Below are positions 14,359 to 61,476 of a stretch of DNA of 64,000 bases, in pieces. The notes under the pieces are model-generated. The model did no database searches. It was not told the origin of the DNA and saw nothing but the letters and a program-made list of their open reading frames with translations. Each line of letters opens with the position of its first letter. Position 1 is the stretch's first letter. Made by a program: the position numbers and the translations under genes. The DNA comes from an uncultured archaeon. Its GTDB lineage: Archaea > Altiarchaeota > Altiarchaeia > IMC4 > QMZM01. The stretch is taken from contig CAZJVE010000001.1 in NCBI GenBank assembly GCA_964549685.1, forward strand, positions 107,906 through 171,905. Reading direction: 5' to 3'.

Positions 14359-15568
14359 TTTTATCCAGTAGCAGATTCATGAATTCCGTTCCGTTTCTGA
14401 GGCCATAGGAGCCCTTCTCAGCGGATTTTTCAGTAAAGCTCTCTACCGAATCCCCTTCCCTGGCCGTTGAATAGATTGCAAAGGGAACAGGGTCGGGGGT
14501 ATGAGTCTTTACACTCAGGGGAGTTGCATGGTCGGGGAGAATCCCGATTGTGAATTCCTTGCCCTTCATGCCATCGAGAATTCTCGCAAGGACTCTGATG
14601 TCGATGTTCTCAATCGCCTCTATCTTGTTGTCCAGCAAACCCTCATGGCCGGCTTCGTCGGGGGCTTCGATATGGATGCATACGAAGTCGTTCCTCTCCA
14701 GTGCCTCCATGGCATAGTCTGCCTTGCCCTCGTAGTTTGTGTCGAGGTATGCGGTCGCTCCGGGAACCTCAATGACCTCCATTCCGAGGGTTGCTGCAAT
14801 TCCCTTCAGGAGGTCAACCCCAGATATCAGGGCGCCCTTGAGGTTGAACATTTCATTGAAGGAGGGGACCTTCTTGTTCCTGCCCGCACCCCAGGGCCAT
14901 ATCAGGTTGGCAGGCAGTTTGCCGCCTCCCTCTCTCTTTTTGTTTATGGGATGATTCTGGAGAATTTCCCTGGATTTTTCAATTAGGCCATCTAGAATCC
15001 TTGCTGTGTCTTCTCCCTCGGCGGTCTTTGCCTTTGGAAGATTCTCACTAACAGAACAGTCATGGATGTCGTGGGGGGGTTTGCAGATTATCTCCTCAGA
15101 GTATTTCCCGGAGAGAACGATAATGTGCCTGTAGCCTCTGCCAGGGTAGAATTTTATGTCTGTAGTGCCTAACTCTTTGTCCAGCTCTTCTATCAGAACA
15201 CTCGCTTCCTCGTCACTTATGTGTCCGGCGCTGTAGTCCTTAATCATACCGTCAGTCTCATTAATCAGATTGAGCCTTATCGCTATCTCGCTGTTCTTCA
15301 GTTTGATTCCAAGGCTTCTGGCTTCCAGGGGGCCTCTTCCGCCGGGATAATAAACCTTTGGGTCATAGCCAAGGACTGCGAGGTTTGCAACGTCGCTCCC
15401 GGCTTCGAATCCTTCGGGTATTGTCTTCAGGAGGCCGCAGCGCCCGTTCTTTGCGATAAAATCCATTGCCTTGGTTTCTGCCTTCTCCAGAGGGGTTTTT
15501 CCTCCGAGCTGTTCCAGGGGATAGTCAGACATGCCATCCCCGACTACAATCATATATTTCATATCCAA
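14351..15568 (-). CDS. apgM: 2,3-bisphosphoglycerate-independent phosphoglycerate mutase, archaeal type
   Basis: N-terminal MIVVGDGMSDYP and overall ApgM-family similarity. Confidence 0.85.
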   Translation of the reverse strand: MDMKYMIVVGDGMSDYPLEQLGGKTPLEKAETKAMDFIAKNGRCGLLKTIPEGFEAGSDVANLAVLGYDPKVYYPGGRGPLEARSLGIKLKNSEIAIRLNLINETDGMIKDYSAGHISDEEASVLIEELDKELGTTDIKFYPGRGYRHIIVLSGKYSEEIICKPPHDIHDCSVSENLPKAKTAEGEDTARILDGLIEKSREILQNHPINKKREGGGKLPANLIWPWGAGRNKKVPSFNEMFNLKGALISGVDLLKGIAATLGMEVIEVPGATAYLDTNYEGKADYAMEALERNDFVCIHIEAPDEAGHEGLLDNKIEAIENIDIRVLARILDGMKGKEFTIGILPDHATPLSVKTHTPDPVPFAIYSTAREGDSVESFTEKSAEKGSYGLRNGTEFMNLLLDKNG

Positions 15569-15583
15569 TAGAATATATGATAT

Positions 15584-16045
15584 ATGCTTGAAAAATTAAC
15601 CGTCCGGGGCTTTGAGGAGGGGGACGAAAAAGGTATGGTGAAAATTCACAAGGACTCGGTTGAGAAGTTTGAGAACATGGACGTGGATGAGAACTTCATC
15701 ATGAGGCTCTTCCAGAGGTCTGACTTCCGGTTCTTCGTTGCAGATAATGGCGGGGGAATTGTCGGCTTTCTTGGAGCCGTCTTCTATAGCAGCGTGGGCA
15801 GAGCGGAGGTTGGCCCCGTATCAATTGCGGAGGGATATAGAAATTCAGGGGTTGGCTCAAGATTGCTCGATGACTGCGAGAATTTCCTCAGGACATTGAA
15901 CATAAGACGAATAACAGCCAAGGTCAAGTACGACAACAACGAGAGCATAAACTTCTTCAAGAAGCACGGCTTTGAGCAGGAGGCCGTTTTCAGAAGGTAC
16001 ACCAAAGACTGTAGGGACGTTGTTCAATTTGTGAAGTTTCTATAG
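15584..16045 (+). CDS. GNAT family N-acetyltransferase
   Basis: Acetyl-CoA-binding motif region RNSGVGSRLL. Confidence 0.65.
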   Translation: MLEKLTVRGFEEGDEKGMVKIHKDSVEKFENMDVDENFIMRLFQRSDFRFFVADNGGGIVGFLGAVFYSSVGRAEVGPVSIAEGYRNSGVGSRLLDDCENFLRTLNIRRITAKVKYDNNESINFFKKHGFEQEAVFRRYTKDCRDVVQFVKFL

Positions 16046-16100
16046 TATAATATTCATATTTTTATAAAAATTCTCGTATTTATCTATTTTTAACCCGTAA

Positions 16101-18131
16101 ATGGCATATTATAGTATGCAGACAAAGATGGGTGGAGGGCGCTATTTCGCGATTCTTCTGGCGCTTCTCCTTTTGGTTTCGGCTGTTGCCGGAGTGCGCA
16201 TCAGCGACATAGATGTGGAGCCGAACGATTATGAGATTGATAAGGATGATGAGATTTCTGTTGATGTGGAATTCTCCGGAACGCCCTGTAATTCAAAGGT
16301 TCTATTCTTCCTGGACGATGTTCTGTTCAGCTCAAAGAATCTCAGGTGCGACGCCGATGATATAGAGTCCGATTCATGGGACCTTAAGGAGAGGGAGGTT
16401 GAGTGTGGCATCCATGAGATAAGGGTTGAGTTATTCAAGAGCGATGAAAAGATTCAGGCCGTCAACCAGACGATAAGGATAGGCAGGGTTCCGGAAATAA
16501 CCATAAGTCCTGAGAGGCCCCTTGTTGATAAGCAGATGGTTATAGAGTTCATAGAAGAGGACGGAACTCCTGCAAGAAATCTGGTTGTTGACATATACTG
16601 GGTAAAGGATGGTATTGGCTCTGCCGATGATTACGACATTGGAAGCGACGGGAAATTAAAATTCACGCCAAAGGAAAGCGGGGAGTACAGATTTACCATA
16701 GACGATTCGAATTACTGCGGAAGCGAGAGCTTCTATGCAAAGAAAACGCTGATTGTTGACGGTCCCGATCCATCTGAGCCAAAGGTTGGCGACCCAGTTA
16801 CTTTTGCGCTTTCAGGCCCAGTCGGGGCAAAGCTTGTCAAGAGCGATGGAGAAACGACTCCTCTTTACACGACAATAAGCGGTGGGGTCAACTTTACTGT
16901 CGATGAAGGGGGCACCTATACATTGGTTCTGGGGGAACTGAGTACCACATACTGGGGCGTTAACAGAACCGTAGTGATAGAAGATAAGGCAGCCATCTCA
17001 TTATTGATTGAACCCGAAACTCCAGTCATCGGAAAGAGTATTTCAGTGAATACCAGAGTCAATGGAGAGGCGCTTTCCGGCGTTGACATAGAGATAGAGG
17101 ACCAGACGGGTGATATAAAGACATACACTACCGACCTGAACGGGGTTATGAATTTCATCCCAAGCTCGATGGGCCTTCACAGAGTATATGCGAAGAAAAA
17201 GAGCTATAAGGAATCCGAAAAGGATTTCCGTGTTTATAACTCCTTGCATGTATTCTTTGAGCCGGCCAGCCCATCCCCTGGCCAGGAGGTTGCCCTGATA
17301 GTCAAAAACCAGCTCGGCTATCTGATTGATGGAGTAAATGTCTTTATTCCTGAGATTCCGGCCGGTGGAAAGACAGATAATAACGGCATGTTCAAATTCA
17401 CTCCAGCCAAGGTTGGCAGATACACGGTAACCCTGAACAAGGAGAGTTATTGGGATGTTGAAAAGGAGTTAAATATTTCTGGATTACTGGAATTGAGACT
17501 GGACAAAAATGTGATTGAGATTGGAGAATCTGTAACAATCCTTACGCTGGATGAAAACGGCAATCAGGTCTCTACTAGCATTAAGGTAAGAAAGCCGGAC
17601 GGTTCTGAGGAAGGCTTGAGTGGTATGATTTACACCCCTGGAGATATTGGTAAGTATCAGGTTTCTGCAGGAGGAGACGGTTATGTAATCTCTACCAAAG
17701 AGCTCACCGTGAATGCTCATCCTCTCGAAGTGAATACTGCAGTCGAGGGTGATGAGCTGGTCATAAAAACTGAGAGTACCTACGGCCCCGTGGCTGGTAT
17801 TACGCTTCTGCTGAAAACAGCAACCAATGACAAAACCCTTGTGACAGACGAGAACGGAATATCAAGAACCGAGCTTGAGGAAGGGGAGGTAAGAATCATA
17901 GCAAACACCATGAATGTTAACAGAGAATATGGCATTCAGGACGTAACTCAGGAGATAAAAAGGGAGCACAACTACGGCATGCTGGCCTTGTTCCTCATAG
18001 GCATAGTTATATTCACAGTGGTAGCGATATTCGTCTCCGGTTCAAAGGGAGACAGGGGCACTGGAACAAGAAAAAAGAACTCAATGCTTGAAGGTAGGAG
18101 CAAAGGCAAGAATAGTCTTTCCAGTCTATAA
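16101..18131 (+). CDS. Large cell-surface protein with signal peptide, tandem Ig/CarD-like beta domains and C-terminal TM anchor plus basic tail
   Basis: N-terminal hydrophobic leader, repeated ~90 aa beta-rich modules, C-terminal helix LALFLIGIVIFTVVAIFV followed by KGDRGTGTRKK. Confidence 0.6.
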   Translation: MAYYSMQTKMGGGRYFAILLALLLLVSAVAGVRISDIDVEPNDYEIDKDDEISVDVEFSGTPCNSKVLFFLDDVLFSSKNLRCDADDIESDSWDLKEREVECGIHEIRVELFKSDEKIQAVNQTIRIGRVPEITISPERPLVDKQMVIEFIEEDGTPARNLVVDIYWVKDGIGSADDYDIGSDGKLKFTPKESGEYRFTIDDSNYCGSESFYAKKTLIVDGPDPSEPKVGDPVTFALSGPVGAKLVKSDGETTPLYTTISGGVNFTVDEGGTYTLVLGELSTTYWGVNRTVVIEDKAAISLLIEPETPVIGKSISVNTRVNGEALSGVDIEIEDQTGDIKTYTTDLNGVMNFIPSSMGLHRVYAKKKSYKESEKDFRVYNSLHVFFEPASPSPGQEVALIVKNQLGYLIDGVNVFIPEIPAGGKTDNNGMFKFTPAKVGRYTVTLNKESYWDVEKELNISGLLELRLDKNVIEIGESVTILTLDENGNQVSTSIKVRKPDGSEEGLSGMIYTPGDIGKYQVSAGGDGYVISTKELTVNAHPLEVNTAVEGDELVIKTESTYGPVAGITLLLKTATNDKTLVTDENGISRTELEEGEVRIIANTMNVNREYGIQDVTQEIKREHNYGMLALFLIGIVIFTVVAIFVSGSKGDRGTGTRKKNSMLEGRSKGKNSLSSL

Positions 18132-33779: not shown

Positions 33780-34574
33780 TCATAAAACCATCAAACTAAC
33801 CCCAAATCCAACAATCAGCCCCGCACAAATCGGGGGCAGTGCTGGAAGTGCGACTTTTTCTTGGTTCAGAATGTAGACAAAGAGTAGGGTTATGCCGATT
33901 AATCCCCCGGCTGCTGTGATGGCCGCGTTCGTGAAGGAATAATCCCTCATCACAGAGACCGAGAAGATAAGGGGAACTGCCAGGTCTCCCGTTCCGAGGC
34001 CAAGGAACCTGTCGCCGAAGGGGATTGTGAACATCAGCGGGATTTTGCCTTCGGCTCCCTTTGCGAGGGTTATCATGTGTTTTGTGCCGAAGACTGCAAC
34101 AAGGTCGTAGGCCGAGAGGATTAGGATGAGTATGAGGGCTGGGATGAATGCTATTGAGGAACCAAACAGCGCCCCGATGCCAGGAATCGTGAAGAGAAGG
34201 ACTATGTTCATGACTGCCGGGTTCCTGCTCTTCAGGATTGAGAGGATAAATAGAGCCGCTGCCAGAAGCAGGCCGATGAAATCGAAGAGAACCCAGAGGG
34301 TGAATGAAAGGCCGACTACTAGGAAGAAAAAGGACATAATTTTTATAATAAAATATAGCCCGAATTTCAGTAGCAGGAGCAGTATTCCCGTCCCGATGAG
34401 AATGTAAACGAAAATTATCAATGAGGTGAGGGGGTTATCCGGCTCCTCTATTACCGGGGCAATCTCCCCTGATTCTATCGCCCCTATCAGCTCGGAACCA
34501 ATATGCAGGCCCATCAGCTGAATGGAAACGTAAAGAAGGATTATCAGTATCAGGGGCTCGTATTTCATTCTCAT
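33780..34574 (-). CDS. Presenilin/signal-peptide-peptidase homologue (intramembrane aspartyl protease, A22 family)
   Basis: YD motif (SAYDLVAV), GxGD motif (GLGTGD), PAL motif (LPALPP) in a polytopic membrane protein. Confidence 0.7.
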   Translation of the reverse strand: MRMKYEPLILIILLYVSIQLMGLHIGSELIGAIESGEIAPVIEEPDNPLTSLIIFVYILIGTGILLLLLKFGLYFIIKIMSFFFLVVGLSFTLWVLFDFIGLLLAAALFILSILKSRNPAVMNIVLLFTIPGIGALFGSSIAFIPALILILILSAYDLVAVFGTKHMITLAKGAEGKIPLMFTIPFGDRFLGLGTGDLAVPLIFSVSVMRDYSFTNAAITAAGGLIGITLLFVYILNQEKVALPALPPICAGLIVGFGVSLMVL

Positions 34575-36595
34575 CTATGTTCTGTGAACATGAATTTCCC
34601 GTGCCTGGGCTCGTAGATTATTCCCTTTGTCTTTAATTCGGTTATTATCTTCTCTGCCTTGAACTTGTCTATCTCCTTGCCTTCTGCCTCTCTAATAATG
34701 TCCTCCATGTGAGCGGAGCCGTCGCCGCTTTCGGCAAGAAGCCCCCTTATGATGTCCTCCATCAGCTTTATCTTGTCCCTGTCCGATTTTGGATATTCCG
34801 CACCGATTCTGTCGATGTCTATCTCTCCTGTTGCGGCGTCATAGGCGACCTCCCTAAGCACGAAGTTTGTGAGTCTTATTGCTCTGTCTGCATCGCTGAC
34901 TGTTACCGCGTCGCTCAGCCTTATCTTTGCCGATGCCTCGGCCAGCCTTACTAACGCCTCTAGCTGTCTTGGGGTTGCCCTTACTGTTTCCTGGCTCCCG
35001 CCCCTCAAATCCACGTAGTACGCCTTTATCTTCTCCGCCGCATCGTCCGTCATGACGGGACGCATGTTCTTGCGCGAATATGCTATGTACTTCCTGAACA
35101 ATTCCGCATTAATTACCGGCTGGATTTCTTCGGCTTCCTCCGGCGTCTTGTGCATCTTGAGCATGTGGTCTGCTATTTCCGCGTCCTTCTCCTTGTCCAG
35201 GATGTCTCTGATAGGGAAAATGAGGTCAAATCTGCTTAGTAGGGTTGGGGGTATATCGAACTGCTCGCCCAGCGGCTTGTAGCTGTCGAACCTGCTGAAT
35301 TTTGGATTAGATGCTGCGAGGACCGCAGTATTTGCAATGAACCTTGTTACCATCCCAGCCTTCGCCACGCTAATGGTTTGCTGCTCCATCGCCTCGTGCA
35401 TGGCACTTCTGTCTTCCTTGTCCATCTTGTCGAACTCGTCAATGCAGACGACTCCGCCTCCTGCAAGAACCAGTGCTCCTGCCTTCAGGGTCCATCCACC
35501 CTCACCGAAGTCGTCCTTCTCTGCCGTGGCTGTAAGGCCCGCCCCGGTTGTGCCTTTGCCGGTAACATAGATGCTTTTTGGTGCTATCTGGTTAACGTAC
35601 TGAAGAATTCTCGATTTAGCGACACCGGGGTCTCCGACGAGAAGAAGATGTATATCCGGTCTGAGGGGGGTTCCGTCAGGAAGCCTCTTCCTTCCCCTTC
35701 CGCCAAAGAGCTGTAATGCGATGGCTTCCTTGACCTCGTTGTAGCCCCAAATTCCGGGGGCGATTGATGCTATTACATGGTCATGAATCTTGGGGTTCTT
35801 GGCAAACTTCTTAATCTCCCTCTCTTCTTTCTTGCTAATTTCGATGTCCTCGAACTCCCTGGCTATTCCCTCAATGTTGTTGCCTTCAATATATTTGAGG
35901 TAGACCGAGCCGCCTTTCTTCGGGGGGAGGAGTCTCATTATGCCCGTGATTACAACACGGTCTCCTGCATAGACCGCATCGGTCAAATCATCCTCCACCC
36001 ACACCTCTATCCTTCTCGCTTCCGCACCTCCCTTGAGCATCTCCAGCGGCTCCTGAATCTCCAGCTTCTGGATGTCTGTCAGTTTTGATTCCTCGGGTAC
36101 AAAGCGAAATTCCCGTCTCTTGCAGTTATTGCAGAACGGGGGCTGCTGCAGAAATCTTGTCGCCTGCGGCTCATCGTGCGATTCATTGCATTTATTGCAG
36201 TAGAATCTGCCGGTTTCAATCTTCGGGAAGATGTCAGTAATCTTGTTAACAAGGCCCTCAAGGGCCATCATCCCCCCTACATTTTTGGATCTGAGTTCTC
36301 TAACGAGAATAGTATAGCCCTTCTCCTTGGGGATGTTATAGAAACGGACGTTTATCCTGAGGTCGTCCATTAGTTCTGGCGCAACCGAGATTTTTTCCTT
36401 CAGAAGAGTCTGGAGGATTTCCAGTATATCGTCGGGATTCGCAATTAACTCCTCAGCAAGCCCGTGGTCAAATTTCTCAAGCTCTTCATAATTGATGAGG
36501 AGGCTTTTTACCTCGGGATAGAGCTCAGCAACCTTGTTTATGTCATTGGACTTCTTGTTTAGAAACCCCTCAAGCTTATCGTTGACTTTTTCCAT
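34571..36595 (-). CDS. mcm: MCM replicative helicase
   Basis: N-terminal Zn finger (CNKCN...CNNCK), Walker A GDPGVAKS, Walker B IDEFDKM, arginine finger, winged-helix C-terminus; size shows no intein. Confidence 0.9.
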   Translation of the reverse strand: MEKVNDKLEGFLNKKSNDINKVAELYPEVKSLLINYEELEKFDHGLAEELIANPDDILEILQTLLKEKISVAPELMDDLRINVRFYNIPKEKGYTILVRELRSKNVGGMMALEGLVNKITDIFPKIETGRFYCNKCNESHDEPQATRFLQQPPFCNNCKRREFRFVPEESKLTDIQKLEIQEPLEMLKGGAEARRIEVWVEDDLTDAVYAGDRVVITGIMRLLPPKKGGSVYLKYIEGNNIEGIAREFEDIEISKKEEREIKKFAKNPKIHDHVIASIAPGIWGYNEVKEAIALQLFGGRGRKRLPDGTPLRPDIHLLLVGDPGVAKSRILQYVNQIAPKSIYVTGKGTTGAGLTATAEKDDFGEGGWTLKAGALVLAGGGVVCIDEFDKMDKEDRSAMHEAMEQQTISVAKAGMVTRFIANTAVLAASNPKFSRFDSYKPLGEQFDIPPTLLSRFDLIFPIRDILDKEKDAEIADHMLKMHKTPEEAEEIQPVINAELFRKYIAYSRKNMRPVMTDDAAEKIKAYYVDLRGGSQETVRATPRQLEALVRLAEASAKIRLSDAVTVSDADRAIRLTNFVLREVAYDAATGEIDIDRIGAEYPKSDRDKIKLMEDIIRGLLAESGDGSAHMEDIIREAEGKEIDKFKAEKIITELKTKGIIYEPRHGKFMFTEHR

Positions 36596-43552: not shown

Positions 43553-44314
43553 ATGGCTAGGGTAATCGGTGTTCTTTCGGGGAAGGGTGGTGTTGGAAAG
43601 ACTACTCTCGTTTCTAATCTTGGTGTGTCTTTGGCTCAGGAGGGTAAGAACGTCGCCATTGTTGATGCAAACCTTACCGGCGCTAATCTGGGACTTCACT
43701 TCGGCTTGCTAAGCTATCCGGTTTCCATTCACGACGTCATGAGTGATGAGGCGCTGATAACGGATGCCATGTACAAGCACCCATCTGGAGTAGACATAGT
43801 TCCCGCGTCCCTCTCTATCGAGCATATAGATACCGAGCCAAGGAACCTGAGGAGCTCGATTGACGAATTTCTTGGCGATAAGGATTTCGTTCTGATTGAT
43901 GCCGCAACCGGTCTGGACAGGGAGACATTAAATGCGATAGACATGTCTGATGAGGTTCTTATTGTCACGCATCCGGAGCTTCCTACGATTTCAGATGCAT
44001 TAAGAACAAAGACCATAGCAGAGAAGTACGGTAAGGATGTCATAGGTATCGTCCTTAACAGAGTGAACAGGAAGGACGAGCTGAATAAGGATAACGTGTC
44101 ATCATTCTTTGAGCTTCCTGTTATCGGCGCTATTCCTGACGACCCCGTGGTTAGGAAATCCATCGAAGCCAAGAATCCGGTAGTTTTGAGTCACCCGAAC
44201 CACAGGGTAAGCAACGAGGTAAGGAGGGTGTCAAGCCATGTATTGGGCAAGAAATACAAACCAGTAAGCAACGGCGGCTTCCTGGACAGGCTTCTGGCTA
44301 TGTTTAAATGGTGA
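43553..44314 (+). CDS. minD: MinD/ParA-family ATPase
   Basis: Deviant Walker A GKGGVGKTT. Confidence 0.8.
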   Translation: MARVIGVLSGKGGVGKTTLVSNLGVSLAQEGKNVAIVDANLTGANLGLHFGLLSYPVSIHDVMSDEALITDAMYKHPSGVDIVPASLSIEHIDTEPRNLRSSIDEFLGDKDFVLIDAATGLDRETLNAIDMSDEVLIVTHPELPTISDALRTKTIAEKYGKDVIGIVLNRVNRKDELNKDNVSSFFELPVIGAIPDDPVVRKSIEAKNPVVLSHPNHRVSNEVRRVSSHVLGKKYKPVSNGGFLDRLLAMFKW

Positions 44315-44697
44315 TTCAGGTTCTCAACAAGAGCAGGGGTTTTGTTATAAGCGAATCCTGTGGTGTAGCTGATTCTTTCTTCTCCAGGTTCAGGGGGCTG
44401 ATGCTTTCAAAGCCAAGGGACCTGGTTCTTGTTTCTCCGAGGGAGGACATAAAGTCCTCGGCGATTCACATGCTGTTTATGAGGTTTCCCATAGATGCTG
44501 TGTGGGTAGATTCAAAAATGATTGTTGTTGATATTAAAAAAAATATTAAACCTAATTCCCTAGGGATTTTCAGGCCGGGGAAGCCGGCTAAGTTTGTTGT
44601 GGAGCTGGGGGTGGGGAAGTTAGGCACTACAGAAGTTGGTGACATAATTGAGTTCTCACATCCCGGCCCCGCCGAGCCGCTTCATCAGCCGCTTTAG
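44308..44697 (+). CDS. DUF192 family protein; carries an in-frame copy of the recurrent 15-mer
   Basis: COG1430-like pattern; KLGTT is encoded by AAGTTAGGCACTACA at 44617..44631. Confidence 0.55.
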   Translation: MVIQVLNKSRGFVISESCGVADSFFSRFRGLMLSKPRDLVLVSPREDIKSSAIHMLFMRFPIDAVWVDSKMIVVDIKKNIKPNSLGIFRPGKPAKFVVELGVGKLGTTEVGDIIEFSHPGPAEPLHQPL

Positions 44698-45972
44698 CTT
44701 TCTTTCATCTCCGAACATGCGCATCATCTTCTTCATCTTCTTGTGATAGTTGAGGAGTTCGCGAACCTCCTCCGGCTTGGTTCCTGAGCCGGATGAGATT
44801 CTGCTGATTCGTTCTCTTTTGATTAGGGTGGGGTCCTCCCTTTCTTGGGCAGTCATCGAGTCCATTATGTAGATGAACTTGTCCAGCTTTTCTTCCTGCA
44901 TATCCAGCATGTCCTTGGGTATCTTTGCCCCAAAGGGGAGCATGCCCGCAACCTGTTTCATTGGGCCCATCTTCTTCATCTGCTGGATTTGAGAATAAAT
45001 GTCGTTCATGTTGAATTTCCCAGACATCATCCTTTCGGCGGCCTTTTCGTCAAAGTCTACCTCCTTTGCCTTCTCGAGCAGGCCCTCCAGGTCGCCGAAG
45101 CCGATGAGTCTTGATACAAACCCTTCTGGGTTGAATTCCTCGAAGTCGTTGATGTGCTCTCCTGTCCCTATGAAATTCACCCCGGAGCCGGTTGCGGAGC
45201 AGGCAGAGATTGCGCCCCCGCCCTTTGCCGTGCCGTCGAGCTTCGTGAGGATTATGCCATCTACTCTTGATGAGTTCTTGAATGCCTCGGCCTCCTTCCC
45301 TGCCTGCTGGCCCGTGGTTCCGTCGAGGATTAGAAGAACCCTCTCGGGCTTTATCTCCTTGTAGATTTTGTTGATGTCCTTCATCAGCTCCTTGTCCAGT
45401 TTGTGCCTGCCTTCAGAGTCTATTAGAATCAGGCCCTCGTTCTTGAACTCCTTGATTCCTTCCTTTATTGTGTTGAGGGCGTTCTTCTCTTCCGGGTTTC
45501 CGTAGAAGGGCAGCTTAATCTCTTCGGAGAGCTGCTTCAGCTGTTCATAGGCCGCGGGCCTGAATGTATCCGCGCAGATGAGTTTTGGATGGAGGCCCTT
45601 TTTCTTAAAGTACCTGGCAAGTTTTGCTACCGTGGTTGTTTTGCCGCTCCCTTGCGTTCCAACGAGAAGGAGTTTTTGTCCGTCCTGTATCTCGACCGGT
45701 TCCCCCTTCCCAAGTAAATTCACCAGCTCCTCGTATGTTATCCTTATAAGGTTCTCCTTTCTGGAGAGCATCCCGGGGGGCTTCTCAAGAAGACCCCTAT
45801 CCTCAATTCTCTTGGACAGCTCAAAAACCTGCTCTATCTGAACATCCGCTGAAAGAAGGGTCTTCTGAATCTCCTTGGTGTAATTCTTTACAGTCTTCTT
45901 ATCGACCACTACCGCTTTCCTCAGGTTCGTGATGGAGCTCTGCAGGCCCTCCGATAACTTTTCGAATACCAT
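44656..45972 (-). CDS. srp54: Signal recognition particle protein SRP54
   Basis: N domain, G domain (GTQGSGKTT, DTFRPAA) and Met-rich M domain. Confidence 0.9.
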   Translation of the reverse strand: MVFEKLSEGLQSSITNLRKAVVVDKKTVKNYTKEIQKTLLSADVQIEQVFELSKRIEDRGLLEKPPGMLSRKENLIRITYEELVNLLGKGEPVEIQDGQKLLLVGTQGSGKTTTVAKLARYFKKKGLHPKLICADTFRPAAYEQLKQLSEEIKLPFYGNPEEKNALNTIKEGIKEFKNEGLILIDSEGRHKLDKELMKDINKIYKEIKPERVLLILDGTTGQQAGKEAEAFKNSSRVDGIILTKLDGTAKGGGAISACSATGSGVNFIGTGEHINDFEEFNPEGFVSRLIGFGDLEGLLEKAKEVDFDEKAAERMMSGKFNMNDIYSQIQQMKKMGPMKQVAGMLPFGAKIPKDMLDMQEEKLDKFIYIMDSMTAQEREDPTLIKRERISRISSGSGTKPEEVRELLNYHKKMKKMMRMFGDERKLKRLMKRLGGAGM

Positions 45973-50856: not shown

Positions 50857-52008
50857 GTGATTGATATGGCAAAAGCGCCAGCAGATACGGTAAAATACAA
50901 CATATACGCGGACATTATCATAGACGGCGTGGTTGAGAAACCAGACGTCGTCGGAGCGATTTTCGGGCAGTCGGAAGGCCTGCTCGGAGAAGAGCTTGAA
51001 CTGAGAGACTTGCAGAAGACCGGAAGAATAGGTCGGATAGAGGTTGATGTTTCAACAAAGGCAGGAAAGTCGACGGGAAAAGTTACGGTACCCTCCAGCC
51101 TGGATATGGTCGAGACGTCAATTATCGCTGCTGCGATAGAAGGAGTCGATAGGGTGGGTCCCTGTAACGCGAAAATAACGGTAAAAGACGTTGAAGATGC
51201 AAGAACTGCAAAGAGGAAGTCTGTGATTGATAGAGCAAAAGAGCTCCTGAAGAAGTTGATGGATGAGGAGATACCTGAAAGCGGTGAGCTAACTGAAGAG
51301 GTCAAGAAGGCGGTTCAGTTGAGTGAAATTGGTGATTATAGAGGGCTTCCTGCGGGACCTACGATAAGCGGTGCTGAGAGCGTCATTCTTGTCGAGGGCA
51401 GAGCAGACGTGATAACTCTGTTAAAGGCAGGGATAAAGAATGCCGTTGCTGTTGGTGGTACAAACATTCCAAAGGCCATTGTGGACCTAAGCAAGGAAAA
51501 AACGACCATTGCCTTTCTGGACGGTGACCGCGGCGGTGAGATGATACTGAAGGAATTATCACAGGTTTCTGAGATTGATTTTGTAGCTAGGGCGCCGAGA
51601 GGGAAAGAGGTGGAGGAGTTGGGCAAGAAAGAAATAATAATGGCTCTGAGAAGGAAGGCCCCCCTAAGCCAGGTAAAGGGAAACAATAATAGAGCACCCG
51701 AAAAGGCCCACCCAAAATCGAAAGAGAGTAAAGACACGCGGCTCCTGTCTCTTTTGGGGGACGTAAAGGGAAAATTAACCGCAAGGCTATATGACAGCAA
51801 CCTGAACCAGATTACGGAGATTGAGATTAAGGACCTTATAGACTCCCTTGGTGGGGTGCAGCCATACTGTGTCGTTTTTGATGGCATCGTTACCCAGAGG
51901 CTGATAGATGCTGCTGCATCAAGTAAGGTTAAGTGTGTTGTGGGCATAAACAAGTCATCAATCTCTAACACACGAGGAGTTCAGATTGTTACTGAGAGGG
52001 ATAAATAA
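50857..52008 (+). CDS. dnaG: Archaeal DnaG primase (Toprim; exosome-associated)
   Basis: Archaeal DnaG N-terminus (KYNIYADIIIDGVVEKPDVVGAIFGQSEGLLG) and Toprim acidic motifs. Confidence 0.85.
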   Translation: MIDMAKAPADTVKYNIYADIIIDGVVEKPDVVGAIFGQSEGLLGEELELRDLQKTGRIGRIEVDVSTKAGKSTGKVTVPSSLDMVETSIIAAAIEGVDRVGPCNAKITVKDVEDARTAKRKSVIDRAKELLKKLMDEEIPESGELTEEVKKAVQLSEIGDYRGLPAGPTISGAESVILVEGRADVITLLKAGIKNAVAVGGTNIPKAIVDLSKEKTTIAFLDGDRGGEMILKELSQVSEIDFVARAPRGKEVEELGKKEIIMALRRKAPLSQVKGNNNRAPEKAHPKSKESKDTRLLSLLGDVKGKLTARLYDSNLNQITEIEIKDLIDSLGGVQPYCVVFDGIVTQRLIDAAASSKVKCVVGINKSSISNTRGVQIVTERDK

Positions 52009-52032: not shown

Positions 52033-52067
52033 ATCCGTCTGAATCTAACTTAATAGTGGGTTCAAAC

Positions 52068-53531
52068 ATGCGCCTTGAGAGCATAGATAGCACCAGAGAC
52101 GTTGAAATTGTAAGAGACCCAATGGCCAGGATTGTTGGGCAGAGTGGTGCTATAGAACGAGTCAAGGTCGCCATAAAACAGAGAAGACACCTGCTTCTTG
52201 TTGGTCCCCCCGGAATCGGGAAGTCTATGATTGCTCAGGCGATTGCCCTTTCCCTTCCAAAGCCAGAAGAGGAGATTCGTATTCTTCATAACCCAGAGAA
52301 TCTGGAGAGGCCAGTTCTCAAGGTTGTATCTGGAGGGGAGGCCAGGGAGGAAGAAGCGCCACCGTCTGCTGATGAGCGGACCGTTAGCCCGCAGTCTGTT
52401 CCGTCCTTTGTTGCGGAGCGCCTTGGCTTCCGATGCTTTGTTTGTGGAGCAATAAGCGGCGCACGGGAGCGGACGTGTCCCTCCTGCGGAGCAAACAAAT
52501 ATAAGAAATTCGCATGGAACCAGCAGAGCTCGCCCCTTGGGGAGATAATAACTGAGGTCTTTGAGATTGAGGGGGAGGGTCCCGAACTGGAGGTGAAAAC
52601 AGTAACTGCCGGGCCCTCTGGAAAGGAACGCGTTGTGGTCTACCGCAGGACAGATGAGGGGAGGATTATGGTTCTGCAGGGGGGGGAGTTAGAGGGGCCG
52701 GCTCAAGAAAATGCTCCCCCGGCAACGAAGGTTCTGGTTCCACTTGGTAGGGCCCCGTTCGTTCGTGCTACTGGCGCCTCAGAGACCGAGCTTTTGGGCG
52801 ATGTAAGGCACGATCCGTATGGTGGCCACCCAGAGATTGGGGCCCCCGCGTATCAAAGGGTTGTTCCTGGTGCGATACATGAGGCTCATGAGGGCGTTCT
52901 CTTCATAGACGAGCTGCCTTCCATGGAGCATTTGCAGGGCTTCATCCTGACCGCGATGCAGGAAAAGAAATTTCCAATTATTGGCAGAAATCCGCACTCC
53001 TCCGGGGCTTCGGTAAAGGTCGAGGCCGTGCCCTGCGACTTTGTTTTTGTGGGCGCGTGTAACACGCGGGAGCTTGCCGGGATGCTTCCTGCCCTGCGCT
53101 CCAGAATTGTTGGTTCGGGTTATGAAATATTGCTGGAGACTACGATGCCTGATTGTGAGGAGAACAAAATGGCTTTGGTCAGGTTTATTGCACAGGAGAT
53201 TGAATTGGACGGCAGAATCCCCCACGCCAGTAGGGGGGCCGTTGAGGAGATAATAAAGGTTGCCAGAAAGCGGGCATTAGAGATAGATGGTGTGAGAAAC
53301 GCCCTCTCCCTTCGCCTTAGAGAGCTCGGGGGCCTGATACGGCTTGCGGGGGACATTGCCGTGTCTGAGGGCACGGAATTTATAGAAGGAAAGCACGTTA
53401 AGGAGGGCATCACGGAAACAAAGCCCATAGAACACCAGTTAAGGGAAAAATACGGCTCTGTTTGGAAGGGGCTGGAGCGCGATAGTTATATTGATTCTAC
53501 CCAGGACCCCCGGCTTGAGGGTTATGGGTGA
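52068..53531 (+). CDS. LonB-like AAA+ ATPase lacking a protease domain, with Zn-ribbon insertion
   Basis: LonB-type N-terminus, Walker A GPPGIGKS, CxxC...CxxC insert, Walker B FIDELP, no S16 Ser-Lys domain; the track ORF starts at GTG 52056. Confidence 0.55.
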   Translation: MRLESIDSTRDVEIVRDPMARIVGQSGAIERVKVAIKQRRHLLLVGPPGIGKSMIAQAIALSLPKPEEEIRILHNPENLERPVLKVVSGGEAREEEAPPSADERTVSPQSVPSFVAERLGFRCFVCGAISGARERTCPSCGANKYKKFAWNQQSSPLGEIITEVFEIEGEGPELEVKTVTAGPSGKERVVVYRRTDEGRIMVLQGGELEGPAQENAPPATKVLVPLGRAPFVRATGASETELLGDVRHDPYGGHPEIGAPAYQRVVPGAIHEAHEGVLFIDELPSMEHLQGFILTAMQEKKFPIIGRNPHSSGASVKVEAVPCDFVFVGACNTRELAGMLPALRSRIVGSGYEILLETTMPDCEENKMALVRFIAQEIELDGRIPHASRGAVEEIIKVARKRALEIDGVRNALSLRLRELGGLIRLAGDIAVSEGTEFIEGKHVKEGITETKPIEHQLREKYGSVWKGLERDSYIDSTQDPRLEGYG

Positions 53532-53577
53532 GGGGGGACATTTCCGGTATTCTGGCGTGTCTTTGTTTTGGGTAGGA

Positions 53578-53680
53578 GTTAGGCACTACGTTCTGATTTC
53601 GGGGGCCCGAGTTAGGCACTACACTAAGGCATCAAAACTTAGGCACTACAAAACCAAAAGTAGAATAAGTTAGGCACTAC
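53578..53680 (+). repeat. Array of four direct copies of 12-mer GTTAGGCACTAC (15-mer consensus RAGTTAGGCACTACA), with 16-21 nt spacers, in a convergent intergenic region
   Basis: Exact copies at 53578, 53611, 53638 (first base C) and 53669; first unit followed by a GGGGG run. Confidence 0.85.
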
Positions 53681-53749
53681 ATAAAAATAGAATTGGTTGG
53701 GTGTCCTCTCAGATCAACGAATATTTAGACGCTGCGCGTTTCGGCTTAA

Positions 53750-54061
53750 CTATTCCTCGGCCGCTGCTTCCTCAGCACCGGCCACTACCAATTTACCGAA
53801 TTTCCCTGTGCTTACTTGGATTTCGCCGCGATACTCTTTCGCCCATCCATTCTCTATAACTATCTTGTCGTTTGCCTTTACTTGGTCCGCCTGTTCGTTC
53901 CAGAGGGTTAGGTTTATCTCGCCGGTTTCGTCCTTCGCCTTGGCGTTTGCCACTCGACCGGTGCCTCTAAAATTGGTAAACTCCCGTGGTTCCTCAACCT
54001 CAACTACCTCCACCTCAAGCACGTCAACGGGCTTGTTTGGCTGAACATCCTTTATCTGCAT
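53750..54061 (-). CDS. OB-fold nucleic-acid-binding protein (short RPA/SSB-like)
   Basis: Single OB-fold pattern and acidic C-terminal tail (AEEAAAEE). Confidence 0.55.
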   Translation of the reverse strand: MQIKDVQPNKPVDVLEVEVVEVEEPREFTNFRGTGRVANAKAKDETGEINLTLWNEQADQVKANDKIVIENGWAKEYRGEIQVSTGKFGKLVVAGAEEAAAEE

Positions 54062-54129: not shown

Positions 54130-54939
54130 CTATACTCCTATTTTAATCCTATTATTAATCTCTTTTAGAATAGCGATAGTAGATAGTGCTGCGAGATAGC
54201 TTGTTTTTGGGTTGTTAGGAGAGGGTAGGTTTTCCATCCTGACTTTGAATTCCCCAAACTCTCCTTTAACACGAATTTCATGAATGTTCCTCTCCACACC
54301 CGGGTCCGCTATTATTCTTAGTTTCGTTTTATCAAACCCTATGCCTGCCAAAGAGAGGGTGGCAGCAACATTAACGTTTTTTGGGAATTTTTTGATTCCC
54401 TCTCTTGCAGAACCATCATAGAGCACGGTTTCTTTGTCGGTTGTAGTGCCTAACTCTGCCGGGGGCTTCCGCGTTGTCAATTCAACCGAGTCGATTCCCT
54501 TGGCTTTGGCTGCCTTTATCCCATCCAAACCAGCAACCGCCCCGGAGGGAAGATAGACCGTGCTTTTGTTTTTATTGCTGCTCTCCACCAGCCCGTTAAA
54601 CACCGTTTCATCAGCAAGGGCACCGACACTCATTATAATCAAGCCCCGGCCGGAATTCAGAACCCCCACCCCATATTCCTTCACCGCGTCCTGCGACGCC
54701 GCCTCAACTATCAAATCAGTGCCCTGGAGCAGGCCCTCGAAGGAGCCTGCAACGCTTGGTTTCCTACTCAACGACTCTGCTAATCCTCTGGCTCGCTCGG
54801 CGTCCTGGTCAAAGACGGCAACCAGGCTGCAATTAACCTCTCCGTTATCAATTGCCTCGGCCAGAATTCTGCCGATGTTCCCGCAACCAAGGAGGCCGAT
54901 TCTCATCTTCTTCCCTTCCCTACTTATCTCCTTATCCAT
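54130..54939 (-). CDS. nadX: L-aspartate dehydrogenase
   Basis: Rossmann start MRIGLLGCGNIG and the NadX-family C-terminal domain. Confidence 0.75.
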   Translation of the reverse strand: MDKEISREGKKMRIGLLGCGNIGRILAEAIDNGEVNCSLVAVFDQDAERARGLAESLSRKPSVAGSFEGLLQGTDLIVEAASQDAVKEYGVGVLNSGRGLIIMSVGALADETVFNGLVESSNKNKSTVYLPSGAVAGLDGIKAAKAKGIDSVELTTRKPPAELGTTTDKETVLYDGSAREGIKKFPKNVNVAATLSLAGIGFDKTKLRIIADPGVERNIHEIRVKGEFGEFKVRMENLPSPNNPKTSYLAALSTIAILKEINNRIKIGV

Positions 54940-57504: not shown

Positions 57505-57813
57505 ATGTTCCGTCTTGTGTACATAACCTGCGGCGGCAATGAGGAAGCGGAAAGGATTTCCGACGCTCTCGTTAAGGAGAAGCTTGCAGCATGCGTGAAT
57601 TTCTTCCCAATAAACTCCGTATTTGAATGGGAAGGGGAAATAAAACAGGAAAAGGAGTTCGCCATGCTCTGCAAAACGACGCAGGACAAAATCCCCCAAC
57701 TAAAGAAAAGGGTGAAGGAGATTCACAGCTATGAGATTCCCGCAATCCTCATTATAGAAATAAAAGAGGGAAACGAGGAATTCCTTAGGTGGGTTGATAA
57801 GTGCCTGGAATAG
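57505..57813 (+). CDS. cutA: Divalent-cation tolerance protein CutA
   Basis: CutA1 family: LAACVNF, WKGEI-like region, 100 aa. Confidence 0.75.
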   Translation: MFRLVYITCGGNEEAERISDALVKEKLAACVNFFPINSVFEWEGEIKQEKEFAMLCKTTQDKIPQLKKRVKEIHSYEIPAILIIEIKEGNEEFLRWVDKCLE

Positions 57814-57816
57814 TTT

Positions 57817-57906
57817 GTAGTGCCTAACTCTGCAGTGGTGTGGTGCTTAACCTTTGGTGCTGTTTTGTAGTGCCTAACTTTATTATGCCGTGTTGTAGTG
57901 CCTAAC
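57817..57906 (-). repeat. Array of three exact and one degenerate copy of the same 12-mer in reverse orientation (GTAGTGCCTAAC), in a convergent intergenic region
   Basis: Exact copies at 57817, 57867 and 57895; degenerate GTGGTGCTTAAC at 57840. Confidence 0.85.
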
Positions 57907-57928
57907 TTTCTAGAACCGCAACACACAA

Positions 57929-58507
57929 CTACTCTCTGAGAACCTTCCCGGACCGCAAATCAATAACCTTCGACGGCTTCCCCACCCTGCACGGCCCGGA
58001 GTCGATAACGAGATCTGCTCCATCCTTTATCCTATCAGAAATCTCCTCGACGCTGGTGGGGGGCGCCTCACCAGAGGCATTCGCTGAGGTGGTTATTATT
58101 GGAACCCCCGCGGCATCGACGACTCTCCTCAATGCTGCGTGGTTGGGAATCCTCACCCCAACCGTGTCCTTACCAGCAGTAACGGCATCGGGAATTCTAG
58201 ATTTTTTCTTTAAAATGAACGTGTATGGTTTACCAATATTATCAAGTATGAATTTTCTCTCCCCCACACCGACAACTGCGTACTCCTCAACCATCTCGAT
58301 GCTGGAGAAGGCAACGGACAGCGGCATGTCTCTACTCCTCTTCTTAATCTCAAAAACCCTCTCTACGCCGGGGGATTCTATGGAGCAACCGAGTCCATAG
58401 ACGGTATCTGTCGGATATACAATAAGCTTACCCGCCCTCAAAAACTCCGCAGCGCATAGAATCTTATCCTCTTCAGGGTTATCTGGAGAAATTCTTAGAA
58501 TCTTCAT
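57929..58507 (-). CDS. YrdC/Sua5-family L-threonylcarbamoyladenylate synthase
   Basis: YrdC domain motifs (VYPTDTVYGL, SANASGE). Confidence 0.8.
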   Translation of the reverse strand: MKILRISPDNPEEDKILCAAEFLRAGKLIVYPTDTVYGLGCSIESPGVERVFEIKKRSRDMPLSVAFSSIEMVEEYAVVGVGERKFILDNIGKPYTFILKKKSRIPDAVTAGKDTVGVRIPNHAALRRVVDAAGVPIITTSANASGEAPPTSVEEISDRIKDGADLVIDSGPCRVGKPSKVIDLRSGKVLRE

Positions 58508-58530
58508 GTTGACTGTGGCAGACCAAGGGT

Positions 58531-58737: not shown

Positions 58738-60012
58738 ATGCGAAAACCCATCCCAAAACCAGGAACCCCGGTAGAGATAAAAACCAAGGAGAAGACATAC
58801 GAGGGGATTCTTATGGAGCGGCCCGCCTTGGCCAAGGACAAGTTCGTGGTAATAAAGCTGGAGAGCGGCTACAATGTCGGCATAAAGGAGAAGAAAATCG
58901 ATAGCATCAAACCCATCAAGAAGAAGATAAAAAAGGACGCCTTCAAACCCGCCAGGCACAGAAGGGACCCGAAAAAACCCGACATATCAATCCTTGCAAC
59001 CGGCGGAACAATAGCCAGCAGGGTTGACTATCTTACTGGGGGTGTACATTCAGCCTTTTCAGCAGAGGAACTAATCTCTGCTGTGCCTGAGCTGGAGGAG
59101 ATTGCAAACCTCTCCGGAAGGCAGCTCTTCAACAAGTTCTCGGAGAACATGCAGCCAGAGGACTGGGTTAAAACCGCAAAGGAGACCGCAAAGGAGATAA
59201 AGAAGAAATCCGCTGGAGTGGTCATCACCCACGGAACAGACACGATGCACTATACCTCAGCAGCATTAGCTTTCATGCTGAAAACCCCGGTTCCTGTCGT
59301 CATCACTGGTGCACAGAGGAGCTCCGACAGGGGCTCAAGCGACGCTGCCTTTAATCTGATAAATTCTGCAAGGGTCGCAGCCAACGGAGAATTCGCAGAG
59401 GTGTGCGTTGTCATGCATGCAGAACCCTCAGATTCACACTGCCTAATCCATCCCGCAACAAAGGCAAGAAAGCTGCACTCCAGCAGGAGGGATGCATTCA
59501 GGAGTGTGAATTCACAGCCCCTTGGAAGGATTTCAGAAGAAGGAATAGAATTCTTCCAGGAGATGAATAAAGGAAATAAACTGGAACTGGACACGAAACT
59601 GGAGGAGAAGGTGTCCTTACTAAAATACCACCCAGGAATGGATTCTAAAATAATTGATAATTTAATAAAGGAAAATTACAAGGGAATTCTCATTGAGGGC
59701 ACTGGCCTTGGCCACACCAGTGAGGCCCTTTTCGATTCGATAGAGAACGCAATAAACTCTGGAGTTGCTGTTGCAATGACATCCCAGACGATATTCGGCA
59801 CCGTAAACATGAACGTCTACTCCACCGGCAGGAAGCTCCTCGACATGGGAGTAATTGCGTGTGGGGACATGCTCAGCGAAACAGCCTACGTAAAGCTGAT
59901 GTTCGTCCTAGGGCATACAAAGAAACAGGACAAGGCTAGGGAGATGATGCTAGCGAATTACGCGAGGGAGCTCACAGAGGGATGTGGGGTCGACCCCCCG
60001 GACCTATACTAA
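58738..60012 (+). CDS. gatD: Glutamyl-tRNA(Gln) amidotransferase subunit D
   Basis: Archaeal GatD N-terminal domain plus asparaginase-like domain (ILATGGTIAS, HGTDTM). Confidence 0.85.
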   Translation: MRKPIPKPGTPVEIKTKEKTYEGILMERPALAKDKFVVIKLESGYNVGIKEKKIDSIKPIKKKIKKDAFKPARHRRDPKKPDISILATGGTIASRVDYLTGGVHSAFSAEELISAVPELEEIANLSGRQLFNKFSENMQPEDWVKTAKETAKEIKKKSAGVVITHGTDTMHYTSAALAFMLKTPVPVVITGAQRSSDRGSSDAAFNLINSARVAANGEFAEVCVVMHAEPSDSHCLIHPATKARKLHSSRRDAFRSVNSQPLGRISEEGIEFFQEMNKGNKLELDTKLEEKVSLLKYHPGMDSKIIDNLIKENYKGILIEGTGLGHTSEALFDSIENAINSGVAVAMTSQTIFGTVNMNVYSTGRKLLDMGVIACGDMLSETAYVKLMFVLGHTKKQDKAREMMLANYARELTEGCGVDPPDLY

Positions 60013-60216
60013 CTCTTTTATCACGACATCGCACGCTGCAAGAATCGTTAGACCGATAATTGCCGAGATCAGAAAACGCAGACCCGGGTCATTTGGAAAT
60101 AAATAGACGTCCAGCAGGCCCCAGATTCCGTGCCAGAACATAATCACTGCAACACCGATTATAAGGGCAAATAGCTTTTGATGATTTACCTCTAACTTTT
60201 TAAACGCCTTTAGCAT
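60004..60216 (-). CDS. Hypothetical small membrane protein
   Basis: Two TM helices. Confidence 0.35.
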   Translation of the reverse strand: MLKAFKKLEVNHQKLFALIIGVAVIMFWHGIWGLLDVYLFPNDPGLRFLISAIIGLTILAACDVVIKELV

Positions 60217-60243
60217 ATTTATCTATTACTCTTTTATTAAAAA

Positions 60244-61476
60244 ATGTTTATCGGTTTGGATGATACGGACTCCCTGAAGGGGGGATGCACCACTTACCTA
60301 GCAGCGCTGCTGTGTAGGGAGCTAGGCACTACAACACGCCCCCGACTCATCCGGCTCAACCCGAACATCCCCTACAAGACAAGAGGCAACGGCGCAGTCG
60401 CAATTGAGGTGGATGGAAACCCTGCTAGAATAAAGGAAACGGCCCTGAAACTGGTCAAGAAACGCGCCCACACCCAGGACAAGAGAACAAACCCCGGTGT
60501 GGCATTCATTGATAATCTAAATTCAAAAAATAAAGACATTTTAAATGAATTCTACCAGAGAGCGGTCTCAGAACTCGTAACGATAGAGGAAGCCGATGAA
60601 ACCGCAGCAAGGGCTGTGGCCGAAACCCACAAATTCAACAACGGCAGGGGCATCATCGGCGCACTGGCAGCAATCGGTGCAGAACTTGATGACAGGACCT
60701 ATGAGCTAATTGCCTACAGGACGAAGGAGAACTGCGGCAAGCCGAAGAAGATAGACGAGGATTCCGTATTCTTGATGCATGAACAATTCCACCCCAAGGT
60801 ATTCAACTCCATTGACCCAGAGACGAATCAAATCCTTATAACCCCACACGGCTACGACCCGGTCTTCTGTGGCATCCGGGGAGAATCTCCCGGCGCAGTT
60901 TTGAAAGCATGGAAGGCCATAAAACCCCTGGAAGAGATAGAACTCACCCAAATATTTGAGACAAACCAAGCTACAGATGCTCATTTGAGAAATAGAAAAA
61001 TCTCTGAATTAAAGCCCCATGACTGCGCAATTCTGGAAGGCGCCGTTGCCAAAGACCCAAGAACAATCGAGGGCGGCCACGTGCTCTTCTCAATTGCTGA
61101 CAGCACGGCAGAGATTGATTGCGCGGCCTACGAGCCAACAGGAGGATTCAGAGAAATAGCAAGGAAACTGCTGCCCGGGGACAGGATTCGTGCCTACGGC
61201 GGGATTGGAAAATATATTAATACTCTAAACCTTGAGAAAATTGAAATTTTAGAATTGGTTAAGGCCTACAAGAAGGAATCTCCTGCCTGTTGCGGCCGGA
61301 GGATGACCTCAGCAGGAAAAGACAAGGGCTTCAAGTGCAGGAAGTGCGGCAAGAGAAAGGACTCGAACTCTGCAGCAACCCAGGAAATTCCCCGGGGACT
61401 TAAAGAAGGATTCTACGAGGCACCACCCAGGGCGATGAGGCACCTGAGCAAGCCGATAATAAGGGCGCAGCAGTGA
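60244..61476 (+). CDS. tiaS: tRNA(Ile2) 2-agmatinylcytidine synthetase
   Basis: MFIGLDDTDS N-terminus and C-terminal Zn ribbon (CRKCGKRK); carries an in-frame 15-mer copy (ELGTT). Confidence 0.8.
   Translation: MFIGLDDTDSLKGGCTTYLAALLCRELGTTTRPRLIRLNPNIPYKTRGNGAVAIEVDGNPARIKETALKLVKKRAHTQDKRTNPGVAFIDNLNSKNKDILNEFYQRAVSELVTIEEADETAARAVAETHKFNNGRGIIGALAAIGAELDDRTYELIAYRTKENCGKPKKIDEDSVFLMHEQFHPKVFNSIDPETNQILITPHGYDPVFCGIRGESPGAVLKAWKAIKPLEEIELTQIFETNQATDAHLRNRKISELKPHDCAILEGAVAKDPRTIEGGHVLFSIADSTAEIDCAAYEPTGGFREIARKLLPGDRIRAYGGIGKYINTLNLEKIEILELVKAYKKESPACCGRRMTSAGKDKGFKCRKCGKRKDSNSAATQEIPRGLKEGFYEAPPRAMRHLSKPIIRAQQ

Follow-up and report, generated by a model that had tools for sequence, protein, structure and literature searches.

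The 64-kb stretch of contig CAZJVE010000001.1 analysed here (the window), from an uncultured archaeon of the Altiarchaeota, contains a short DNA word, the 14-mer AGTTAGGCACTACA, that recurs both between and inside genes. It occurs in nine exact copies against 0.00 expected from 100 dinucleotide-preserving shuffles; when up to two mismatches were allowed, 12 copies were found against 0.15 expected, eight of them intergenic and four within open reading frames (ORFs). The word is genuine, does not recur by chance, and is conserved from phylum to phylum. Its copies in the window are as follows:

15161-15175, minus strand: copy in apgM (gene 14351-15568, minus strand), GAG TTA GGC ACT ACA, encoding ELGTT at codons 132-136
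44617-44631, plus strand: copy in a DUF192 gene (44308-44697, plus strand), AAG TTA GGC ACT ACA, encoding KLGTT
53577-53681, plus strand: intergenic array of four direct copies starting at 53577 (with a final G), 53610, 53637, and 53668, at spacings of 33, 27, and 31 nt
54442-54456, minus strand: copy in nadX (gene 54130-54939, minus strand), GAG TTA GGC ACT ACA, encoding ELGTT
57816-57907, minus strand: intergenic array of three exact copies (57816, 57866, and 57894) and one decayed copy (57839-57852, TGTGGTGCTTAACC)
60319-60333, plus strand: near-copy with one mismatch in tiaS (gene 60244-61476, plus strand), GAG CTA GGC ACT ACA, encoding ELGTT
61499-61512, minus strand: single intergenic copy between tiaS and nrdD (61564-63705, plus strand), antisense to both

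An earlier note on this DNA had drawn attention to the four in-gene copies, and the coordinates, strands, frames, and peptides that it gave were all confirmed. Its statement that the four genes use identical codons holds for three of them only, since tiaS has CTA, and the first codon is GAG in apgM, nadX, and tiaS but AAG in the DUF192 gene.

Both arrays lie between convergent genes: the first between a ComM-like AAA+ gene (52056-53531, plus strand) and an Ssb-like OB-fold gene (53750-54061, minus strand), and the second between the genes for CutA (57505-57813, plus strand) and Sua5/YrdC (57929-58507, minus strand). The single copy at 61499-61512 is located approximately 10 nt upstream of a TATA-like TATTTAAT. 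The sister genome Candidatus Altiarchaeota KR13_N1.mb.66 (L074) is syntenic with the window from 52.8 to 60.7 kb at 86-90% nucleotide identity, and the closest homologues of the apgM and DUF192 proteins of the window are Altiarchaeales proteins. An array is also present at the place syntenic with 53577-53681 in L074 and L088, and the copy at 57839-57852 that has decayed in the window is intact in L074.

Alignment of the host proteins with orthologues, which the earlier note had proposed as a check, revealed that all four in-ORF copies are substitutions in loops, with LG ancestral and TT derived at each site. The apgM segment KELGTTDIKF aligns without gaps to LDMGEYSFRV of a solved apgM structure; the nadX segment AELGTTTDK to KSLGLDLKG of Thermotoga maritima and to TLGVDVKE, GLDVNVDK, and SLGSGVKE of other Altiarchaeota; and the tiaS segment RELGTTT to RELGKVI of Archaeoglobus fulgidus TiaS. 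The DUF192 copy occupies the usual G-x-L-G-x-T loop, again ungapped against orthologues. The suggestion that the pentapeptides are recent short insertions is contradicted by these gap-free alignments to orthologues or solved structures.

The word is conserved in two of the host genes well beyond the sister genome. Orthologues of apgM at 90%, 79%, and 62% protein identity carry exactly RAGTTAGGCACTACA, and DUF192 orthologues at 71%, 69%, and 56% identity retain RAG TTA GGC ACT AC(A/G), the final A/G alternative being a common variant in intergenic arrays too. In both genes, the word stands at unchanged codon positions down to 56-62% identity, at which other synonymous sites are largely randomised. 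With the codon identity observed at the other conserved L, G, and T positions as reference, the probability that all four LGTT codons agree in apgM was calculated to be 0.0235 for the 79% lineage and 0.0037 for the 62% lineage. One further apgM orthologue at 79% identity is word-free and reads NLGTE, written AAT CTA GGA ACA GAA. Among Altiarchaeota ORFs totalling 62,028 residues, 12 of 12 LGTT tetrapeptides were written with the word, where 1.1 LGTT were expected from composition, and the background codon probability of TTA-GGC-ACT-ACA is 0.0018. The earlier note's view that selection acts on the DNA word itself is thus strongly supported by apgM and DUF192 orthologues that keep the codons at 56-79% identity, and the in-ORF copies are under nucleotide-level conservation. 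The ancestral LG at the four in-ORF sites is the one point in favour of chance, codon bias, or a conserved peptide motif as the explanation, which is refuted by the data: the shuffles yielded no copies, TTA and ACT are minority codons (12% and 17%, respectively), LGTT was never written with other codons, and the word-free apgM orthologue keeps LGT with other codons.

The histories of the remaining two copies are shorter. The nadX copy is kept in L074 with a synonymous final A>G change; in nadX of more distant Altiarchaeota, the LG at this site precedes VD, VN, or SG and the DNA is unrelated, so that the copy is derived in the lineage of the window and L074, to which it is confined. At least five clustered nucleotide changes were required to create it. 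The earlier note had named orthologues that encode the same residues with unrelated codons as evidence against selection on the word; the word-free nadX orthologues do not have TT after LG, so that this counter-evidence was not obtained. The tiaS site reads CTG in L074, with two mismatches to the word; none of the other three in-ORF copies is as weak or as poorly conserved. As judged from the orthologues, the apgM and DUF192 copies are old and the nadX copy is younger and lineage-confined.

The shared reading frame of the four copies is a weaker coincidence than it appears, because three of the word's six frames hold a stop codon (T|TAG; TGT AGT GCC TAA; TG|TAG) and only LGTT, (V)RHY, and antisense VVP(N/K) are compatible with an ORF. 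All 15 in-ORF copies detected in 191 kb of Altiarchaeota DNA (approximately eight independent events) were in the sense LGTT frame, with genes in the database loci called by a crude longest-ORF rule; three other genes contribute word pairs separated by 24-30 nt to this set. Since the same proteins contain LG 426 times, HY 34 times, VP[NK] 6 times, RHY once, and VVP[NK] not at all, LGTT is the frame for which pre-existing sites are by far the most numerous and the encoded peptide is the mildest. The few in-ORF copies in loci outside the Altiarchaeota use the antisense VVP frame. These findings are consistent with a process in which the word is written by substitution over existing LG loop residues in the frame that proteins tolerate and, once written, would be held in place by purifying selection on nucleotides.

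Within Altiarchaeota genomes, 60 of 75 copies (approximately 80%) are intergenic, although intergenic DNA makes up less than 10% of the sequence; this sample was partly selected for arrays, many loci having been chosen because they contain them. Ten or 11 of 20 Altiarchaeota arrays are located at convergent 3'-3' junctions, compared with the approximately 20% expected from gene pairs, and only one of the 20 is in a promoter region between divergent genes. The DUF192 copy, 66 nt ahead of its own stop codon and 25 nt from that of the overlapping convergent SRP54 gene (44656-45972, minus strand), is in the same kind of place as the convergent-junction arrays. The orientation of an array relative to genes is informative in tandem contexts only, as convergent and divergent contexts carry no such information, and in tandem contexts sense and antisense arrays numbered 5-7 and 3, respectively, a bias that is not significant. 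An apparent sense bias of arrays in 3' untranslated regions (UTRs), with 20 of 24 following co-oriented genes, was therefore rejected; only the tandem contexts count, and the real signal is the convergent enrichment. In 77 kb of Altiarchaeota DNA picked by gene and not by word, five further copies were found, which puts the density outside clusters at approximately one per 10-15 kb.

One genome per species was scanned for two copies of the 12-mer core of the word 10-40 nt apart, and 95 stretches were recovered from hosts with a GC content of 25-59%. They derive from at least seven archaeal phyla (Woesearchaeota, Pacearchaeota, Nanoarchaeota, Iainarchaeota, Micrarchaeota, Aenigmatarchaeota, and Altiarchaeota), from uncultured 'Methanosarcinales' metagenome-assembled genomes (MAGs), and from a few bacteria. 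Array copies are direct repeats whose start-to-start spacings peak at 22-25, 31-33, and 44-45 nt, and a periodogram of the spacings peaked at 10.25-10.5 bp (p of approximately 0.002 against uniform spacing). A period of approximately 10.4 bp is the helical repeat of duplex DNA and therefore fits proteins bound on one face. In most arrays the copies are separated by spacers that bear no relation to one another. Relative to genes, the word has no preferred strand in DPANN loci. The gene that most often lies downstream of arrays in these loci is scpA, whose identity was confirmed by Pfam; 15 of 17 scpA genes near arrays have two or three forward copies within 150 nt upstream, a link seen in DPANN loci only.

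A self-propagating repeat or a mutational drive, in which REP/MITE-like (repetitive extragenic palindrome or miniature inverted-repeat transposable element) or gene-conversion-like spread would leave functionless copies in genes, could account for the array copy number that differs between sister genomes, for the clustered changes behind the nadX copy, and for a 32-nt unit with a conserved spacer on at least seven contigs of Candidatus Iainarchaeum CSSed10_269. We nonetheless consider it improbable, because the apgM and DUF192 copies are fixed at the same codons amid randomised synonymous sites, most arrays have unrelated spacers, and no transposase lies nearby. The word unit is asymmetric and has no palindrome, hairpin, or terminal inverted repeat, and a word pair was found in only 6 of 2.9 million viral contigs, none of which encodes the small protein described below; a viral or mobile origin was rejected on the viral counts. 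Like the word, REP and BIME (bacterial interspersed mosaic element) sequences of enterobacteria are short units that form arrays at 3' ends, often between convergent genes, with a copy number that varies among relatives. However, REPs are imperfect, hairpin-forming palindromes and strictly extragenic, whereas the word is non-palindromic, its arrays have no excess folding energy, and its copies are conserved in ORFs.

The Iainarchaeum unit, seen at L002, L019, L026, L032, L038, L044, and L052, combines the word with a 20-nt spacer that is conserved, atcgttcgtttcagaaggat, and with an adjoining hairpin-like aaacttttgaNcaaaaagttt, which suggests a lineage-specific amplified element. At the cutA/sua5 junction, L074 (5044-5181) has 5-6 copies against the three intact and one decayed in the window, at 86% identity; the spacers have diverged and the word has been retained. 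The two arrays of the window are mutually inverted and flank 4.1 kb, and they were considered as transposon ends of a Tn7/Mu-like element. This was rejected because there is no transposase inside, the enclosed ssb-like, nadX, nadC, and cutA genes are housekeeping genes whose synteny extends to distant Altiarchaeota, and the arrays occupy the same places in L074 and L088.

Many arrays adjoin a gene of approximately 50 codons, MAFIRxKKIxGxxYYYLVxSxRxxGKVxQKVxKYIG. A profile search of the 95 word-selected loci detected this domain in 25, among them the Altiarchaeota locus L069, two Acidobacteriaceae loci, and loci with the domain fused to other proteins, and the family comprises 3,042 clusters in a 50% representative library. 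The small protein had no match in Pfam (nothing at E of 1 or below besides noise), NCBIfam, PHROG, or the PDB sequences, and no signal peptide or membrane segment was found in its 50 residues. Full-text literature searches with the word, its complement, family peptide words, and topic terms gave nothing relevant on the family. An AlphaFold2 model (predicted local distance difference test score, 90.5) has a beta-beta-beta-alpha topology, and its best structural neighbours, at moderate scores, are nucleic-acid binders of the PC4, Sub1, and Pur-alpha type. The fold is thus predicted to be PC4/Pur-alpha-like, although the family has no sequence relationship to the PC4/Sub1, Pur-alpha, and Whirly-type binders, as no Pfam or PDB match was found. 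PC4 is a single-strand binder of low sequence specificity, whereas a specific 12-nt site with duplex-type phasing is implied here.

The word is coupled to the genes of this family. All four members picked by protein alone have a TATA box, 3-6 nt, TGTAGTGCCTAA (0-1 mismatch), 6-8 nt, and ATG. In a protein-based metagenome scan, 44 of 73 distinct upstream regions contained the word with up to two mismatches and within 60 nt of the ATG, compared with 3.6% of control windows. Archaeal family promoters have the word in antisense orientation, downstream of the TATA box and ahead of the ATG. The bacterial-type members have TTGACA-N17-AGGCACTACAAT, so that the word overlaps the -10 box, and at two Acidobacteriaceae loci four tandem 12-mers abut the small-protein gene. 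Variants of the site track sub-families, YYYIVEG..RD occurring with GTTGTGCCTAA and RHGNR.YYYLVE with GTGCCCA, a match judged by inspection of approximately 30 loci and not statistically.

These results suggest that (R)AG-TTAGGCACTACA is a putative operator-like recognition site of this family of small (approximately 50-residue) nucleic-acid-binding proteins, a reading to which we assign a probability of roughly 0.6. The site travels with the gene across domains and always lies over the core promoter; it is therefore most simply that protein's own operator. Because family genes in DPANN archaea and some bacteria carry the word in their own core promoters, autoregulation is indicated. The small protein would be the binder, and duplex DNA the form in which the word is bound. 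The phased direct-repeat arrays beside other genes, most often scpA, would be further sites, and in the Altiarchaeota lineage of the window the word would additionally have been fixed at gene 3' ends and within ORFs, where it may serve as a regulatory, roadblock, or architectural binding site. Lrs14 and CopG-like archaeal autoregulators offer a parallel, with a site that follows the TATA box and precedes the start of their own gene, and with direct-repeat arrays upstream of targets. However, the small protein has another fold and is not in Pfam, its site does not differ between phyla and is shared by bacterial members, and, unlike the operators of those regulators, the word is also found within ORFs and at 3'-3' junctions.

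Several points weigh against an operator of the small protein. No canonical family member was found in the window or in the approximately 270 kb of Altiarchaeota DNA examined, in which the only relatives seen were a divergent paralogue with no word upstream (L069) and a frameshifted one (L203). The small gene could be merely the most conserved target of another factor, and fusions to glycyl-tRNA synthetase (GlyRS) in three loci hint at RNA binding. Moreover, every Altiarchaeota in-ORF copy is sense, and the arrays favour convergent junctions and shun divergent promoters; a plain promoter operator leaves both preferences unexplained.

In Altiarchaeota the word may alternatively act in the transcript, as UUAGGCACUACA, where copies in mRNAs and in 3' UTR arrays would be recognised by an RNA-binding protein, possibly the same PC4/Pur-alpha-like one, that controls stability, translation, or 3'-end formation. 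The sense orientation of the Altiarchaeota in-ORF copies (15 of 15 by the crude gene calls, approximately eight independent events), the 5-7 sense against 3 antisense arrays in tandem contexts, the arrays that directly follow stop codons, with the word's own TAG as the stop in four loci, the single-strand binding of the PC4/Pur-alpha fold class, and the GlyRS fusions all favour such an RNA-level element. On the other hand, in the family's archaeal promoters the antisense word follows the TATA box and precedes a probably leaderless start, and would therefore not be transcribed there. In DPANN loci the word has no strand bias and the in-ORF copies are antisense, the spacing tracks the DNA helical repeat, and peptide tolerance alone can explain the sense bias in ORFs. 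Folding of the arrays was no better than that of shuffled sequences (z from -0.8 to +1.1), and an Rfam-type search for known RNA families returned tRNA only, with no match for the arrays. We therefore regard an RNA-level role as the main alternative to an operator of the small protein, plausible but unlikely.

A further reading is a parS/ParB-like chromosome-marking role, in which the small PC4-like protein would bind phased convergent-junction arrays and conserved in-ORF sites, control scpA, and organise or segregate the DPANN and Altiarchaeota chromosome. To our knowledge, no centromere-like element is known in these archaea. Like parS/ParB sites, DnaA boxes, and iterons, the word is invariant across phyla, lies partly in ORFs at conserved positions, and is clustered, and the link to scpA, which encodes the kleisin of SMC (structural maintenance of chromosomes) complexes, recalls the loading of SMC by ParB. 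In parS/ParB-type systems a conserved protein recognises the site and the gene of the binder has its own site; the binder of the word is here the putative one. Furthermore, parS is a 16-bp palindrome bound by a helix-turn-helix protein with a CTPase domain, whereas the word is asymmetric and its candidate binder is a 50-residue beta-sheet protein. We consider a chromosome-marking role decidedly doubtful.

The earlier note had likened the word to bacterial uptake sequences, and a tag that biases uptake towards related DNA would be, as the word is, short, non-palindromic, over-represented, in a preferred frame in genes, and common near gene ends. The uptake signal sequences (USS) and DNA uptake sequences (DUS) of Pasteurellaceae and Neisseria resemble it further in nucleotide-level selection and in use of the least harmful ORF frame. 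The likeness breaks down, however, in lineage specificity, density, distribution, repeat geometry, and promoter coupling. USS and DUS are lineage-specific, evenly spread at approximately one per kb, and, for DUS, often arranged as inverted pairs. The word is identical in many phyla and thus cannot mark 'self'; at one per 10-15 kb outside clusters it is approximately 10-fold sparser; approximately 80% of its copies are intergenic, and they cluster (10 of the 12 in the window within 8 kb); and it forms phased direct repeats and takes a fixed position in the core promoters of a small cytoplasmic protein's gene. An uptake signal is highly improbable on these grounds.

If an operator-like site of the small protein is the correct reading, a whole family of small sequence-specific nucleic-acid binders, with thousands of clusters in DPANN archaea, Altiarchaeota, and some bacteria, has been missed by annotation. 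The family would come with a nearly invariant 12-nt site that can be tested directly for organisms that cannot be cultured, and it would offer an initial way into how DPANN archaea and Altiarchaeota regulate their genes or organise their chromosomes, with the scpA link as the main lead. The in-ORF copies would be a clean natural case of coding sequence under a second, DNA-level code, with four codons frozen while the host proteins diverged to 56-62% identity.

Further observations concern the small-protein loci. The bacterial members at L018 and L064 (Acidobacteriaceae MAGs), L137, L145, L171, L153, L188, and L195 have the word forward, either over the -10 box or as four head-to-tail 12-mers before the gene. 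The only literature match for the word is a listed promoter of the RNA polymerase of Escherichia coli phage ECBP5, TAGGCACTACAATA (PMC11617373), to which the -10-overlapping AGGCACTACAAT is equal; this may be a coincidence. The small-protein domain is N-terminal to an archaeal-type GlyRS in L063, L094, and L022 and to a Fic protein (HPFx[D/E]GNGR) in L045, and it also forms the N-terminus of many proteins of 100-300 residues whose remainder has no Pfam match. The N-termini of IS1634-type transposases, which we take to be similar to the small protein (..Y.LVES.R..GK.RQ...LG), showed no Pfam link to it. The frameshifted relative in L203 (Altiarchaeota, approximately 9500-9650, minus strand) reads MSFIRYKRVWNKEYAYEI...KSKYL.. 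and has a near-word, CTTAGGCACTATG, approximately 70 nt upstream. On a Woesearchaeota contig (L099-L101, 4309-5165), a DUF192 gene and a tRNA directly precede the small-protein gene, which is near the genes for MCM and the TATA-binding protein; DUF192 is also a host gene of the word in the window. In L107 the small-protein gene is beside orc1/cdc6 and polB.

In the window, 10 of the 12 copies lie between 53577 and 61512, and the first 44 kb contain one copy only. The 8-kb cluster is flanked by replication and DNA-metabolism genes, namely dnaG/Toprim (50857-52008), the ComM-like AAA+ gene, the Ssb-like OB-fold gene, and nrdD, and an MCM gene is present at 34571-36595. No replication origin or Orc1/Cdc6 gene was identified in the window. 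In the Altiarchaeota loci L009, L051, L081, and L084, the stop codon of the gene upstream of the array is the TAG in the first copy of the word (T-TAG-GCA...), so that word and ORF overlap there. Genes in the window can be packed very tightly. The apgM gene and a divergent GNAT acetyltransferase gene are only 15 bp apart (15568-15584), so that the promoter of each must lie within the ORF of the other. The DUF192 and SRP54 genes overlap tail to tail by 42 nt (44656-44697); on the related Altiarchaeota contig L205, an IS66-family transposase gene (7523-8866) stands between them, and the in-ORF word of the DUF192 gene is still present.

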